Position numbers and translations under genes: made by a program. The notes beneath the pieces were generated by a model. It had not been told where the DNA came from. It saw only the letters and a list, made by a program, of their open reading frames with translations, and did not search any database. From the NCBI RefSeq assembly GCF_055900595.2, contig NZ_CM148325.1: 64,000 nucleotides of DNA; one strand, written 5' to 3'. Positions 1-10,542 of the stretch are shown in pieces. Numbering within the stretch: position 1 is the first letter of the stretch; each line of letters starts with the position of its first letter.

Positions 1-270
1 ATCATGCATAATGAAATCGTCATGTTATTTGGCGATATAAAAAAGTCTTTGAAAATACTCTCTACAACAAGTGCAGTTATAAGCTTGTTGTGACTGAGCG
101 TCCTTGTGATTTAAAGATATTATCGTTCTTCATCAGATGTAATAACTCAGGAAATTATATTTTCAGGGTGACAGGCTAATCAAGAATGATTCTTTTTTAT
201 AAACAATAACCGAATGACTGAATTGTTATATTTCTTTATTCAGCTGCTTAAATATAAACTTTGGAGAATT

Positions 271-5718: not shown

Positions 5719-6633
5719 ATGGGAAAAAAAATTAGTATAAATGTCCTGTTCAGTATTTATTTTCTTTTGATGGCAGGTAAAGTCTTCGCCTTCAGTTGTA
5801 ATGTTGATGGTGGGTCAAGTATTGGCGCAGGTACAACTTCTGTGTATGTTAATCTCGATCCTGTCATTCAACCAGGTCAGAATCTGGTTGTAGATTTGTC
5901 TCAGCATATAAGTTGCTGGAATGATTACGGCGGCTGGTACGACACAGATCATATTAACTTAGTACAAGGCTCAGCTTTCGCAGGCTCCCTACAGTCATAT
6001 AAAGGATCGCTGTACTGGAATAATGTGACCTACCCCTTTCCGTTGACGACAAATACCAACGTGCTGGATATTGGTGATAAGACACCGATGCCCTTACCGT
6101 TAAAACTCTATATTACCCCTGTCGGGGCGGCCGGTGGCGTTGTCATAAACGCGGGAGAAGTTATTGCTCGCATTCATATGTATAAAATTGCAACGTTAGG
6201 AAGTGGAAATCCGCGTAACTTTACATGGAATATTATTTCAAATAACAGTGTTGTTATGCCAACGGGCGGCTGTACCGTTGATAGTCGTAATGTCACAGTG
6301 AGTCTCCCGGACTTTCCTGGAAGCGCAGAAATACCCCTGGGCGTATATTGCTCAAGTGAGCAAAAGCTCTCATTTTATCTTTCGGGCGCTACCACTGACA
6401 GTGCCCGACAAGTGTTTGCTAATACAGCACCTGACGCAACAAAAGCATCAGGAGTCGGTGTCTCCCTGATGCGTAATGGAAAAATACTGGCTACGGGAGA
6501 AAATGTCTCCCTGGGAACTGTAAATAAAAGCAAAGTACCCCTGGGCTTAAGTGCAACTTATGGACAGACCGGAAGCAAGGTCGCAGCTGGAGCAGTACAG
6601 TCAGTCATTGGCGTTACATTTATCTATGAATAA
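5719..6633 (+). CDS. ydeQ: FimH-like two-domain tip adhesin (FmlH/YdeQ-type)
   Basis: 304 aa ORF; N-terminal lectin-like domain and C-terminal pilin domain colinear with FimH as I recall it (…[20 protein letters not shown]…, …GVTFIYE C-terminus). Confidence 0.85.
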
Positions 6634-6715
6634 TTGTGATGTTGACCCTGTTATACTTTAGGTTGTGCTTTCCATTCACTAAAATTACGCGGATAATTCT
6701 TTCCTGAAAGAAATT

Positions 6716-6733
6716 ATCCTACACCTGTAAGAA
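6716..6733 (+). promoter_or_regulatory. Candidate EvgA box upstream of ydeP
   Basis: ATCCTACA-CC-TGTAAGAA, an 8-2-8 inverted repeat close to the EvgA consensus TTCYTACA-N2-TGTARGAA as I recall it; ydeP is an established EvgA target. Confidence 0.55.
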
Positions 6734-6981
6734 AATCCGCGCACAATTGAAGTCAGAGTCTTATTTTATATATTGAAAAGTATGTTAACTTAAAGACTAT
6801 GAGAGATGATGCTTAACTTATCGCATTTATACTATTCTGTTATGTGACGATAATGAGTTAAAAATAGAATGAGAGTAGCCCCCTACTCTCATATATCCAA
6901 ATGGCCGATAAACCCATTATATATACTGCGCATCATCGCTATTACAAATCCTAATAATTCATTTCCACACAGGATAAGCTG

Positions 6982-9261
6982 ATGAAGAAAAAAATTGAAT
7001 CCTACCAGGGAGCTGCCGGTGGTTGGGGGGCTGTCAAATCTGTAGCGAATGCAGTCCGTAAGCAGATGGATATACGCCAGGAAGTGATTGCCATGTTTGA
7101 CATGAATAAGCCAGAAGGCTTTGACTGTCCAGGATGTGCATGGCCAGATCCTAAGCACAGCGCGTCATTCGACATTTGTGAAAACGGCGCAAAAGCAATC
7201 GCCTGGGAAGTCACCGATAAGCAGGTGAATGCCTCTTTTTTCGCTGAGAATACGGTTCAATCATTACTTACCTGGGGAGATCACGAACTCGAGGCTGCGG
7301 GGCGTCTCACTCAACCTTTGAAATATGATGCCGTCAGCGACTGTTACCAGCCATTAAGCTGGCAACAAGCTTTCGACGAAATTGGCGCACGTCTTCAAAG
7401 TTATAGTGATCCAAATCAGGTTGAATTCTATACTTCGGGTCGCACTTCCAATGAAGCTGCCTTTCTTTATCAGCTTTTTGCCCGTGAATACGGTACCAAT
7501 AACTTTCCCGACTGCTCAAACATGTGCCATGAACCGACCAGCGTAGGTTTGGCTGCGAGTATCGGCGTGGGTAAAGGGACCGTGTTACTGGAAGACTTTG
7601 AGAAATGCGATTTAGTCATTTGCATTGGGCATAACCCTGGTACAAACCACCCTCGCATGCTGACTTCGTTGCGCGCTTTAGTGAAACGTGGAGCGAAAAT
7701 GATTGCCATCAATCCTCTGCAGGAGCGTGGCCTGGAGCGATTTACCGCACCACAGAACCCGTTTGAAATGCTGACGAACTCCGAGACTCAATTGGCTAGT
7801 GCTTACTATAATGTGCGCATTGGTGGCGATATGGCGTTGCTAAAGGGGATGATGCGCCTGTTAATTGAGCGCGATGATGCTGCAAGTGCTGCGGGTCGGC
7901 CCTCATTGCTGGATGACGAATTCATTCAAACGCATACCGTCGGCTTTGACGAGCTACGCCGTGACGTTCTCAATTCCGAGTGGAAAGATATCGAACGTAT
8001 TTCTGGACTAAGTCAGACACAAATCGCCGAACTTGCTGATGCATATGCCGCTGCCGAACGAACCATTATCTGTTACGGAATGGGGATCACTCAGCACGAA
8101 CATGGTACACAGAACGTACAGCAACTGATCAATCTGCTGTTGATGAAAGGTAACATTGGCAAGCCTGGTGCGGGTATCTGCCCACTACGTGGTCACTCTA
8201 ATGTACAGGGCGACCGAACCGTCGGTATCACCGAGAAACCGTCTGCAGAGTTTCTGGCTCGCCTGGGTGAGCGCTATGGCTTCACCCCACCTCATGCACC
8301 TGGACATGCTGCAATCGCCAGCATGCAAGCAATATGTACGGGGCAAGCTCGAGCATTGATCTGCATGGGGGGCAACTTTGCACTGGCAATGCCAGATCGG
8401 GAAGCGAGCGCTGTACCGTTAACGCAATTAGATCTGGCGGTACACGTTGCCACAAAGCTTAACCGCTCCCATCTGCTGACCGCACGGCATAGCTATATCC
8501 TGCCGGTTCTGGGACGTAGCGAGATTGACATGCAAAAAAGCGGTGCGCAGGCGGTAACCGTTGAGGATTCAATGTCAATGATTCATGCCTCGCGTGGCGT
8601 GTTAAAACCCGCAGGTGTCATGCTGAAATCAGAGTGTGCTGTGGTCGCGGGAATCGCGCAGGCAGCGCTCCCTCAGAGCGTGGTGGCCTGGGAGCATCTG
8701 GTGGAAGATTATGATCGCATTCGCAATGACATTGAAGCTGTGCTGCCAGAGTTCGCCGACTATAACCAGCGCATCCGCCATCCTGGTGGTTTTCACCTGA
8801 TAAACGCAGCTGCTGAAAGGCGCTGGCTGACGCCGTCAGGTAAGGCTAATTTTATTACCTGTAAAGGGTTGTTAGAAGATCCCTCTTCGGCGTTTAACAG
8901 TAAGCTGGTCATGGCGACAGTGCGCAGTCACGATCAGTACAATACGACGATTTATGGTATGGATGACCGCTATCGAGGGGTATTCGGTCAACGAGATGTG
9001 GTCTTCATGAGTGCTAAACAAGCTAAAGTTTGCGGTGTAAAAAACGGCGAAAGAGTTAATCTTATTGCGCTTACGCCAGACGGTAAGCGCAGCTCACGCC
9101 GCATGGATAGATTAAAAGTGGTCATTTACCCCATGGCTGACCGCTCACTGGTGACCTATTTTCCAGAATCGAATCACATGCTAACACTTGATAACCACGA
9201 TCCATTAAGTGGCATTCCTGGCTATAAAAGTATTCCGGTTGAATTAGAACCATCAAATTAA
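6982..9261 (+). CDS. ydeP: Molybdopterin oxidoreductase, FdhF-like, acid-resistance associated
   Basis: 759 aa ORF beginning [21 protein letters not shown]…, recognised as YdeP; N-terminal Cys cluster (CPGC…C). Confidence 0.9.
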
Positions 9262-9274
9262 TTCGCCTCCTCAT

Positions 9275-9310
9275 TTCTTCTGCTGTCATCCGCACAGCAG
9301 AAGAATTCCT
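9275..9310 (+). terminator. Rho-independent terminator after ydeP
   Basis: Perfect 12-bp stem TTCTTCTGCTGT / ACAGCAGAAGAA with 7-nt loop, followed by a T-rich stretch. Confidence 0.6.
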
Positions 9311-9379
9311 CATTGACCATTGTCGCGCAATTTACTCACATGTGCTAAATTAAACTGCTCGCTATAAGATTTATACCTC

Positions 9380-9397
9380 CGCCTACAGCTGTAAGAA
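9380..9397 (+). promoter_or_regulatory. Candidate EvgA box upstream of safA-ydeO
   Basis: CGCCTACA-GC-TGTAAGAA; shares the core CCTACA-NN-TGTAAGAAA-N-TCCGC with the ydeP upstream site; about 110 bp before the safA ATG. Confidence 0.55.
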
Positions 9398-9508
9398 ACT
9401 CCGCTCAGTACTGAAGCACCAGTCCTATTTCCTCTTTTTTCCAGCCTGTTATATTAAGCATACTGATTAACGATTTTTAACGTTATCCGCTAAATAAACA
9501 TATTTGAA

Positions 9509-9706
9509 ATGCATGCGACCACAGTGAAAAACAAAATCACGCAAAGAGACAACTATAAAGAAATCATGTCTGTAATTGTGGTTGTCTTATTACTGACACT
9601 TACGTTGATAGCCATTTTTTCGGCAATTGATCAGCTGGGTATTACAGAAATGGGTCGCATTGCAAGAGATCTTACACATTTCATTATCAATAGTTTGCAA
9701 GACTGA
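9509..9706 (+). CDS. safA: Small membrane protein SafA, two-component system connector
   Basis: 65 aa ORF MHATTVKNKITQRDNYKEIMSVIVVVLLLTL… with one transmembrane segment; directly upstream of ydeO. Confidence 0.85.
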   Translation: MHATTVKNKITQRDNYKEIMSVIVVVLLLTLTLIAIFSAIDQLGITEMGRIARDLTHFIINSLQD

Positions 9707-9780
9707 AAATAAACAGCAAATTATAAATATGAAATGTTAAAAAAGTATCGATAAAAACTTTATTGTTTTAAGGAGATAAA

Positions 9781-10542
9781 ATGTCGCTCGTTTGTTCTGT
9801 TATATTTATTCATCATGCCTTCAACGCTAACATTTTAGATAAAGATTACGCCTTCTCTGACGGCGAGATCTTGATGGTAGATAACGCTGTTCGTACGCAT
9901 TTTGAACCTTATGAGCGGCATTTTAAAGAAATCGGATTTAATGAAAATACCATTAAAAAATATCTACAATGCACTAACATCCAGACAGTGACGGTGCCTG
10001 TTCCTGCGAAGTTTTTACGTGCTTCAAATGTACCGACTGGATTGCTTAATGAAATGATTGCTTATCTCAACTCGGAAGAACGCAATCATCATAATTTTTC
10101 AGAACTTTTGCTTTTTTCTTGCCTGTCTATTTTTGCCGCATGCAAAGGTTTCATTACACTATTAACTAACGGTGTGCTATCCGTATCAGGGAAAGTGAGA
10201 AACATTGTCAATATGAAGCTGGCACACCCATGGAAACTAAAAGATATTTGTGATTGCCTGTATATTAGTGAAAGCCTGCTGAAGAAAAAACTAAAGCAAG
10301 AGCAAACGACATTCTCACAAATTCTTTTAGATGCCAGAATGCAACACGCAAAAAATTTGATACGCGTAGAAGGTTCAGTCAATAAAATTGCCGAAAAATG
10401 TGGTTATGCCAGTACATCTTATTTTATTTATGCTTTCCGCAAACATTTCGGCAACAGTCCAAAGAGAGTTTCAAAGGAGTACCGTTGTCAAAGGCACACG
10501 AATATGAACACGGGCAACACGATGAATGCTTTGGCTAATTGA
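9781..10542 (+). CDS. ydeO: AraC-family acid-resistance transcriptional regulator
   Basis: 253 aa ORF with C-terminal AraC-type helix-turn-helix (…KIAEKCGYASTSYFIYAFRKHFG…); AT-rich gene. Confidence 0.9.
   Translation: MSLVCSVIFIHHAFNANILDKDYAFSDGEILMVDNAVRTHFEPYERHFKEIGFNENTIKKYLQCTNIQTVTVPVPAKFLRASNVPTGLLNEMIAYLNSEERNHHNFSELLLFSCLSIFAACKGFITLLTNGVLSVSGKVRNIVNMKLAHPWKLKDICDCLYISESLLKKKLKQEQTTFSQILLDARMQHAKNLIRVEGSVNKIAEKCGYASTSYFIYAFRKHFGNSPKRVSKEYRCQRHTNMNTGNTMNALAN

Follow-up and report, generated by a model that had tools for sequence, protein, structure and literature searches.

Probable EvgA boxes in the ydeP and safA-ydeO promoters of Escherichia coli, and a similarity that extends beyond them

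Masuda and Church (2002/2003) are said to have described the EvgA box of E. coli K-12 as an 18-bp inverted repeat, TTCPyTACA-N2-TGTAPuGAA, and the binding of EvgA to this box was reportedly studied by Itou et al. in 2009. At activator-dependent promoters of class I that have an extended -10 element, an activator centered near -72 contacts the C-terminal domain of the RNA polymerase alpha subunit. EvgA activates ydeP (PMC11210196) and, according to a review citing Itou et al. 2009, binds the safA-ydeO promoter (PMC9496106); literature support for the activation and the binding is also found in PMC4283999. Inverted repeats bound by EvgA sit, in addition, upstream of yfdX and yfdW (PMC3720670). 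BvgA, a NarL/FixJ-family homologue of EvgA, binds its promoters at a high-affinity inverted repeat and, from there to the -35 region, as further head-to-head dimers at 22-bp intervals, the sites of which are difficult to identify from sequence (PMC7250471); the Bordetella promoters Pfha and Pptx served as our comparison.

The DNA analyzed here, which we call the window, is a 64-kb stretch of E. coli sequence in which ydeQ, ydeP, safA and ydeO all lie on the + strand. Gene identities follow the annotation of K-12 and that of a RefSeq genome with 100% identity, and the features discussed below are collected in Table 1. The ydeQ-ydeP intergenic allele of the window, which has ATCCTACA where K-12 has AGCCTACA, is rare, sequences at least 99% identical to it being present in 18 of 5,426 genomes. 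A scan of genome contigs for YdeO returned three loci, one titled E. coli and two on contigs filed as uncultured bacterium and as a Candidatus Nanosynbacter MAG, with a YdeO 98% identical to that of the window. The finding of only three loci agrees with the confinement to E. coli that emerges from PMC5706723, where no identification of safA-ydeO and evgAS outside this species is reported.

Table 1. Coordinates of the promoter features and genes considered in this work (positions in the window)
Feature	Position	Strand	Remarks
EvgA box, ydeP promoter	6716..6733	+	ATCCTACACCTGTAAGAA; 18-bp inverted repeat, 1 mismatch to TTCYTACANNTGTARGAA
TCCGC flank, ydeP copy	6736..6740	+	invariant in 10 E. coli alleles; TTCGC in divergent ortholog L119
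Candidate degenerate second EvgA-like dimer site, ydeP	6738..6755	+	CGCGCACA-AT-TGAAGTCA; hypothetical
AGTCYTATTT-type block, ydeP	6757..6766	+	AGTCTTATTT; about -42..-33
Extended -10, ydeP	6783..6791	+	TGTTAACTT; read from sequence; hexamer is TAATTT in K-12
Presumed 5' leader, ydeP	6799..6981	+	approximately 183 nt, against 178 nt in K-12; starts AUGAGAGAUGAUGCUUAA
ydeP coding sequence	6982..9261	+	759 aa; putative oxidoreductase, acid resistance; ORF list and RefSeq/K-12 annotation
EvgA box, safA-ydeO promoter	9380..9397	+	CGCCTACAGCTGTAAGAA; 2 mismatches to consensus
TCCGC flank, safA copy	9400..9404	+	strain GPT24-02 has TCCGT, the one natural variant
Candidate degenerate second EvgA-like site, safA	9402..9419	+	CGCTCAGT-AC-TGAAGCAC; 22 bp 3' of box; hypothetical
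AGTCYTATTT-type block, safA	9421..9430	+	AGTCCTATTT; about -42..-33; kept in divergent ortholog L119
Extended -10, safA	9447..9455	+	TGTTATATT; read from sequence; same register as the ydeP element
safA-ydeO operon	9509..10542	+	safA 9509-9706, 65 aa; ydeO 9781-10542, 253 aa

The 23-bp pattern CCTACANNTGTAAGAAANTCCGC has two exact matches in the window, CCTACACCTGTAAGAAAATCCGC at 6718-6740 and CCTACAGCTGTAAGAAACTCCGC at 9382-9404. No further match was found in the 64 kb, on either strand and with up to three mismatches allowed, and 100 dinucleotide-preserving shuffles yielded none. These counts bear out a first-pass annotation of the window, which had claimed that the same core precedes both ydeP and safA-ydeO; the range that it singled out, 6716-9397, is delimited by the two 18-bp boxes, opening with the first base of one and closing with the last base of the other. 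It had also placed the ydeP site about 250 bp before the start codon, and was right: we counted 264-266 bp from the start of the site to the ydeP ATG (6982). The corresponding distance to the safA ATG (9509) is 127-129 bp.

Compared with the consensus TTCYTACA-N2-TGTARGAA, the box at 6716-6733 shows one mismatch and the box at 9380-9397 shows two. Fourteen EvgA half-sites were compiled into a weight matrix, by which the two boxes scored 22.8 and 19.7 bits, respectively, the two highest values in the window (the next best being 8.7), so that the resemblance to the EvgA consensus claimed at first pass was confirmed as well. When applied to the K-12 DNA around evgAS-yfdX (19 kb), this consensus returned four sites against 0.28 expected, all of them intergenic (emrK/evgA, frc and two at yfdX), and it returned one more K-12 site upstream of yegR. 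The recovery of these intergenic sites validates the consensus empirically. In the hdeD-gadE region, no EvgA box was detected with three or fewer mismatches. In the literature searched, neither the consensus string nor the wording 'EvgA box' was found, and nothing useful turned up on EvgA ChIP-exo, SELEX or footprinting.

Each of the two boxes lies upstream of, and points toward, a gene or operon whose induction by EvgA is documented (PMC4283999, PMC9496106, PMC11210196). With respect to the EvgA-activated promoters of K-12, the window offers the same sequence class in front of the same genes (ydeP and b1500/safA-ydeO), nothing essential being different, and its boxes appear to share orientation and distance to the core promoter with those of emrK, frc, yfdX and yegR. 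With the best explanation taken as a whole, the motif pair represents the known, high-affinity boxes for phosphorylated EvgA in the ydeP and safA-ydeO promoters, a reading to which we assign a probability of about 85%. The core of this finding was already known, because EvgA activation of ydeP and EvgA binding at the safA-ydeO promoter have both been published.

Downstream of the boxes, and at identical spacing from them, we could read an extended -10 element in both promoters, TGnTAACTT for ydeP (50-58 bp 3' of the box) and TGnTATATT for safA, with both -10 hexamers beginning 61.5 bp from the box centre. A -10-like hexamer 53-59 bp 3' of the box occurs in six out of six promoters, with published start support that is indirect and concerns ydeP only. 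Neither the ydeP nor the safA promoter has a recognisable -35 element which, in combination with the extended -10, suggests that transcription is activator-dependent.

A published probe for the ydeP leader RNA covers -178 to +10 (PMC11210196). By alignment, its 5' end (-178 in K-12) maps to position 6799, 7 nt 3' of the -10 hexamer; transcription of ydeP probably starts near 6799, which would center the box at about -74.5. For safA, a start at about 9462-9463 and a leader of some 46 nt may be predicted by homology with ydeP. Of the two options raised at first pass for ydeP, a long leader or an additional promoter element, the former is supported, given that the predicted start near 6799 coincides with the published 5' end, while the latter is unneeded. 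The ydeP leader is structured, with a minimum free energy of -42.9 kcal/mol (z = -3.67) and conserved helices that include one compensatory pair; no Rfam family was matched between 6400 and 9900. A simple sigma-70 scan picked out TTGAAG-16-TATATT at 6747-6774 as a possible alternative promoter upstream of ydeP and found no promoter upstream of safA. We rejected this element as the main ydeP promoter because it has no safA counterpart and because it is the extended -10 that agrees with the published 5' end of the leader.

The likeness between the two promoters is ungapped and colinear; it begins at the left box edge, ends at approximately +25 and thereby covers about 100 bp. Identity amounts to 21/23 in the motif, 32/54 in the next 54 nt (a value reached in none of 100,000 shuffles) and 13/24 in the following 24 nt; upstream of the box it is 7/40 (17%). 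Over the 66 nt 3' of the box, 39 positions are identical, offset 0 being clearly the best register. We found no description of this colinear similarity, or of the fixed-register columns presented below, in the literature searched.

A chance resemblance devoid of regulatory meaning could appeal to the AT-rich composition of intergenic DNA and to nothing beyond that, and it is already refuted by the statistics together with the literature. Shuffled sequences reproduced neither the motif nor the downstream similarity, and the sites are found precisely in front of two genes whose induction by EvgA is known. Moreover, when the 23-mer was searched in the window, in 14 loci and in a metagenome scan, the 149 instances with full flanks among the metagenome matches listed were all ydeP-type or safA-type, with no third kind of locus.

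At first pass, the TCCGC flank had been taken as part of one recognition unit, meaning that EvgA would read TCCGC and that the 23-bp pattern would be a single longer site. The pentamer is indeed identical in the two promoters and almost invariant in E. coli (TCCGT once at safA, TTCGC at ydeP in L119), but it is missing from all five of the other EvgA boxes (emrK, frc, both yfdX, yegR), the sequences 3' of which are TTGTATT, TAACATC, TAAAATA, AACCCTT and ATGTTGT. Besides, TCCGC is no better conserved than the next 60 bp, and it flanks on one side only a box that is an inverted repeat. A single 23-bp unit is hence very improbable, and the claim found no support in view of the five boxes lacking the flank and of a similarity that runs on for about 100 bp. 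Judging from the alignments, TCCGC is the first block of a longer ydeP/safA promoter similarity rather than a generic extension of EvgA sites.

Some positions in this longer similarity recur at other EvgA promoters. The AGTCTTATTT block of ydeP holds a half-site-like TCYTA core, with a distance of 42 bp to the distal box half, and has same-register counterparts in safA (AGTCCTATTT), emrK (AGTCCT) and yegR (AATCCTATT). Columns +26, +27 and +31 are identical in five out of five independent EvgA promoters, and the register-specific columns with this property number seven, against 0.6 expected.

We assessed the conservation of the two promoters across E. coli alleles and in L119, a single divergent lineage from metagenomes. 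Among 10 alleles of E. coli, the ydeP box is near-invariant from CCTACA on, with only the spacer varying (C or T), and the safA box is invariant from GCCTACA, the DNA immediately upstream being variable; conservation sets in at the left box edge. In the uropathogenic strain UPEC 536, a natural deletion stops 28 bp short of the box on its upstream side, so that the promoter is intact. Polymorphism was less frequent at positions that the two promoters have in common than at unshared ones, both among E. coli alleles (5/108 vs 13/60; Fisher p = 0.001) and among metagenome alleles (5/68 vs 10/50; p = 0.05). In the L119 ortholog, whose ydeP coding sequence is 87% identical, the shared blocks were kept and the positions in between had changed.

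These data bear on the idea that the similarity is a historical trace of promoter duplication, in which the shared positions other than the box and the -10 have no function. An ungapped, colinear and sharply bounded likeness is what a copied segment would look like, and the circuit appears to be young, E. coli being the only species with safA-ydeO and evgAS (PMC5706723). However, the significantly lower polymorphism of the shared positions, their retention in the L119 lineage and the seven columns common to five independent promoters argue against functionless remnants, and we consider this explanation unlikely. A duplicated promoter cassette in which functionally important positions have been kept is the most likely origin of the likeness; duplication and convergent constraint cannot be separated by sequence alone.

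Alternatively, the blocks found only in ydeP and safA (TCCGC, TGAAG and the AG before TCYTATTT) could be the site of a second regulator, for instance a factor responsible for YdeO-dependent shut-off or PhoP-dependent repression. In the 66 nt 3' of the box, frc, yfdX and yegR match ydeP/safA at 20-25 positions, far below the 39 shared by the latter two, even though all of these promoters are activated by EvgA. Furthermore, YdeO represses its own expression and, indirectly, that of ydeP (PMC11210196), PhoP lowers safA promoter activity (bioRxiv 10.64898/2026.05.06.723403), and TCCGC occurs four times in the ydeP-safA spacer, a density matched by only 0.13% of 250-bp windows. On the other hand, we recognised no known motif in the shared blocks, the only PhoP-box-like repeat is 3' of the safA start and so outside them, and emrK, which is not known to share those repressors, is partly alike (28-30/66, p ~0.001-0.003). 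YdeO itself was rejected as the reader of the blocks: its ChIP-chip targets include neither ydeP nor safA (PMC4222967), and the blocks lack ATTTCA, the YdeO box. Overall, a second regulator seems to us an improbable source of the shared blocks.

Returning to EvgA as the protein acting at these promoters, we scored the DNA 3' of each box for further EvgA-like sites. At ydeP, the best score among offsets 12-55 was obtained for a candidate centered 22 bp 3' of the box (about -52.5), whose weight-matrix value of +1.0 falls between the 99th (-3.0) and the 99.9th (+2.7) percentiles of the window background. The same offset was the best for safA, with a score of -4.2 that lies between the 95th (-8.1) and the 99th (-3.0) percentiles. 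Hence the best secondary offset was +22 for ydeP and safA, a non-independent pair with modest scores; it was +20 for emrK and frc, and yfdX and yegR gave nothing consistent. At yfdX, the distance between the two boxes is 38 bp and thus corresponds to neither 22 nor 44 bp. A third full dimer site at +44 was rejected owing to poor weight-matrix scores.

The architecture thus described is akin to that of BvgA-activated promoters in that a high-affinity inverted repeat is found furthest upstream, no usable -35 is available and the best candidate for a secondary EvgA-like site is exactly 22 bp 3' of the box, the spacing of BvgA dimers. It differs in that a third EvgA dimer, if placed at +44, would extend into the -35 region instead of adjoining it, and in that the proximal TCYTA element of ydeP and safA is at +42, not +44. 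The comparison with class I promoters holds for the activator site near -74.5, for the TGn motif of the extended -10 and for the poor match of the -35 hexamers; the conserved segment at -63..-33 does not qualify as a UP element of the A-tract type.

We tentatively propose that ydeP and safA carry two copies of a cassette of about 100 bp, in which the -74.5 box might nucleate a BvgA-like occupancy of the DNA downstream. TCCGC...TGAAG could then be the second dimer site (-52.5) and TCYTA, near -40, a half-site for the contact proximal to the polymerase, and parts of the fixed register, CAnA (-57..-54) and TCnnATT (-40..-34), would recur at every EvgA-activated promoter. Within the EvgAS cascade of acid resistance, ydeP and safA-ydeO constitute the first tier; the box of each promoter is probably centered some 74.5 bp upstream of the start, and the shared -63..-33 region may provide weaker secondary contacts for EvgA, for RNA polymerase or for both, as at BvgA-activated promoters.

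Relative to the boxes already known, what our analysis adds is modest and architectural, namely a likeness extending over about 100 bases instead of 23. If confirmed, the proposed arrangement would explain how EvgA activates from 75 bp upstream at promoters that have no -35, and would allow EvgA targets to be predicted better than by the 18-bp box alone. Irrespective of these details, it is at the EvgA boxes in front of ydeP and safA-ydeO that both the EvgAS-YdeO-GadE acid-resistance cascade and the connector pathway leading from EvgAS to PhoQP have their entry point.

The pattern CCTACANNTGTAAGAAANTCCGC, which the first-pass annotation had noticed upstream of both ydeP and safA-ydeO, matches exactly at 6718-6740 and 9382-9404 (by direct reading of 6400-9800 and by pattern scan). 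Allowing up to three mismatches on either strand yielded no further match in the 64-kb window, and 100 dinucleotide-preserving shuffles contained none, so the shared motif is real and not a product of chance. The region is 100% identical to that of E. coli Z0117EC0005 and about 94% identical to that of most other E. coli; K-12 keeps the gene order ydeQ-ydeP-safA-ydeO, on the minus strand. An allele of the ydeQ-ydeP intergenic region (6634-6981) at least 99% identical to ours is carried by just 18 of the 5,426 complete E. coli genomes, the rest being 86-88% identical. It is thus a rare, deeply diverged allele, in which the box-to-start segment is far better conserved than its surroundings.

Genes and predicted promoter elements of the ydeQ-ydeO region (window coordinates)
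Feature	Position	Strand	Product or sequence	Basis
ydeQ ORF	5719-6633	+	304 aa	RefSeq name from identical region of Z0117EC0005
ydeP extended -10	6783-6791	+	TGTTAACTT	sequence reading
ydeP ORF	6982-9261	+	759 aa	RefSeq name from identical region of Z0117EC0005
safA extended -10	9447-9455	+	TGTTATATT	sequence reading
safA ORF	9509-9706	+	65 aa	RefSeq name from identical region of Z0117EC0005
ydeO ORF	9781-10542	+	253 aa	RefSeq name from identical region of Z0117EC0005

The EvgA consensus of Masuda and Church is reportedly TTCPyTACA-N2-TGTAPuGAA. When put to the test, this consensus matched the window at 6716-6733 (one mismatch) and 9380-9397 (two mismatches) and nowhere else. Around evgAS in K-12, a 19-kb stretch yielded four sites (0.28 expected), all of them intergenic (emrK/evgA, frc and yfdX), and one site lies upstream of K-12 yegR. 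With a weight matrix built from 14 half-sites, the two window sites scored 22.8 and 19.7 bits, the two highest values in the 64 kb, the next best reaching 8.7. The literature agrees: EvgA binds the safA-ydeO promoter (PMC9496106) and the inverted repeats upstream of yfdX and yfdW (PMC3720670), it activates ydeP (PMC11210196), and its phosphorylated form is the established activator of both the ydeP and safA-ydeO promoters. The core of the finding is therefore known biology; the window sites share sequence, gene context and orientation with the EvgA-box family, and are predicted to be bound. In the K-12 emrK/evgA intergenic region (locus L002, 5514-5545), a third half-site, TTCTTACT, lies directly upstream of the emrK-oriented box, so that the divergent promoters are separated by three consecutive half-sites.

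The distance from box to extended -10 is the same in both promoters, the hexamers starting 61.5 bp from the box centres, and neither promoter has a recognisable -35. When the window is aligned with K-12 (the leaders differ by a 5-bp indel), position -178, the 5' end of the K-12 ydeP leader probe in PMC11210196, corresponds to 6799, 7 nt after the ydeP hexamer. A start here would centre the box at about -74.5 and give a leader of about 183 nt, which accounts for the distance of some 250 bp between box and ATG, from which a long leader had been proposed earlier. By homology with ydeP, safA transcription would start at about 9462-9463.

The ydeP leader is structured (MFE -42.9 kcal/mol, z = -3.67). 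Its closing helix of 10 bp (+4..14 with +132..142) is invariant, a 10-bp hairpin at 6869-6892 is terminator-like when read on the minus strand, and comparing six alleles gives one compensatory pair. The leader matched no Rfam family, and CsrA did not bind it (PMC11210196). The inferred 5' end of the transcript (6799-6816) reads ATG AGA GAT GAT GCT TAA, a five-codon leaderless mini-ORF that is invariant in every allele examined, including the divergent metagenome ortholog L119; the conserved closing helix may be all that lies behind this invariance. Just past the predicted safA start lies a PhoP-box-like direct repeat, TGATTA-ACGAT-TTTTAA (9464-9480), whose second half is altered in L119; PhoP is reported to lower safA promoter activity (bioRxiv 10.64898/2026.05.06.723403).

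The proposal that the TCCGC flank forms, with the box, one extended 23-bp recognition unit did not survive comparison with other EvgA boxes. Read towards the target genes, these are followed by TTGTATT (emrK), TAACATC (frc), TAAAATA and AACCCTT (yfdX) and ATGTTGT (yegR). Since TCCGC follows none of the five, it is not a general element of EvgA recognition; moreover, the ydeP/safA similarity runs past it.

TCCGC itself occurs four times on the + strand of the 247-bp ydeP-safA spacer, at 9289 (hairpin loop), 9378 (just upstream of the box; missing in K-12), 9400 (flank) and 9486 (safA leader), with another copy at 6736; across the 64 kb, four or more copies occur in only 0.13% of 250-bp windows. 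A 7-bp inverted repeat, GCGCGGA...TCCGCGC, surrounds the ydeP box in most E. coli (window 6689-6742; minus strand in the K-12 locus L001). Its left arm reads ACGCGGA in the window, a deletion in UPEC 536 stops just upstream of that arm, and the safA promoter has no equivalent. After the ydeP stop, a perfect 12-bp stem-loop (9275-9305, TTCTTCTGCTGT-CATCCGC-ACAGCAGAAGAA) has a weak T tail and was not flagged by a terminator scan. L119 (reverse strand, just after the ydeP stop) has an identical stem with the loop ACGGATG, almost the reverse complement of CATCCGC, which suggests that the loop has been inverted between the repeat arms.

In an ungapped comparison anchored on the motif, ydeP and safA are identical at 21/23 motif positions, 32/54 of the next (a value reached in 0 of 100,000 shuffles; window-wide mean 13.9, sd 3.3) and 13/24 thereafter, and at just 7/40 upstream of the motif. 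In the 66 nt that follow the 18-bp box they share 39 positions (17 expected), offset 0 being by far the best register. In that register emrK matches both at 28-30/66 (p about 0.001-0.003); for frc, yfdX and yegR the overall similarity over 66 nt was not significant. The shared blocks may be mere remains of a duplication. E. coli is the only species in which evgAS and safA-ydeO have been identified (PMC5706723), and scanning species-representative genomes for YdeO gave only three close relatives: one contig titled E. coli, and two filed as an uncultured bacterium and a Candidatus Nanosynbacter MAG, whose YdeO is 98% identical to that of the window. In a circuit so young and limited to E. coli, a recent duplication of the promoter cassette is plausible.

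The box-to-start region is under selective constraint. Among 10 E. coli alleles it is nearly invariant from the box's left edge (CCTACA) in both promoters, and divergence sets in directly upstream; the ydeQ-side deletion of UPEC 536 ends 28 bp upstream of the box. Polymorphism affects 5/108 positions identical between ydeP and safA, against 13/60 non-identical ones (Fisher p = 0.001), and metagenome alleles follow the same trend (5/68 against 10/50, p = 0.05). Among the metagenome 23-mer matches listed with full flanks, we found at least 80 ydeP-type and at least 68 safA-type loci (one of the latter with a 1-bp deletion), one divergent ortholog of safA, L119, and nothing of a third type. L119, whose ydeP coding sequence is 87% identical to that of the window, retains TCCGCTCAG, TGAAG, CAGTCCTATTTC and CTGnTATATTAAG in its safA promoter, with changes at the positions between them; its ydeP promoter has the box CCTACG and the flank TTCGC. 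In two metagenome contigs (L052 and L092) the 23-mer copies are 3,492 and 1,398 bp apart, compared with the usual 2,660 bp or so, suggesting that some gut E. coli carry ydeP with an insertion or with part of it deleted.

A common register extends to other EvgA promoters. Across five independent ones (ydeP, emrK, frc, yfdX-proximal and yegR), seven columns after the box are identical in 5/5 (0.6 expected, p < 0.0002): +9, +10 and +12 (CAnA), +26 and +27 (TC), +31 (T) and +55. AGTCYTATTT, at about -42..-33, has the TC..ATT block as its core; this block is similar to an EvgA half-site (TCYTA) and sits 42 bp from the distal half of the box. With 75 bp separating the box from promoters devoid of a -35, activation would need a bridge from it to RNA polymerase.

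BvgA, the Bordetella homologue of EvgA, binds a strong inverted repeat furthest upstream, and additional head-to-head dimers follow every 22 bp as far as the -35 region, at sites that are difficult to spot in the sequence (PMC7250471). Scanning offsets 12-55 with the EvgA matrix placed the best secondary site exactly at +22 in both ydeP and safA, two promoters that are not independent samples. The ydeP site (CGCGCACA-AT-TGAAGTCA) scored +1.0, between the 99th (-3.0) and 99.9th (+2.7) percentiles of the window background, and the safA site (CGCTCAGT-AC-TGAAGCAC) -4.2, between the 95th (-8.1) and 99th. The TCCGC...TGAAG block might thus be a weak second EvgA site, 22 bp downstream of the box. 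The evidence is only suggestive, given this non-independence, a peak at +20 in emrK and frc, and a spacing of 38 bp between the two yfdX boxes; the shared 22-bp spacing is a lead towards a BvgA-type architecture rather than a demonstration of membership.

Alternatively, the shared blocks may serve as contacts for the alpha subunit of RNA polymerase, or as the binding site of a second regulator of both promoters, whose shut-off does involve YdeO (indirectly) and PhoP. As for YdeO in that role, its ChIP-chip targets exclude the ydeP and safA promoters, which also lack a YdeO box.

Overall, the initial interpretation is partly supported, its EvgA boxes and long leader holding and its extended recognition unit failing. 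Beyond the already known finding, the analysis offers a modest but testable hypothesis on the architecture of EvgA-activated promoters.
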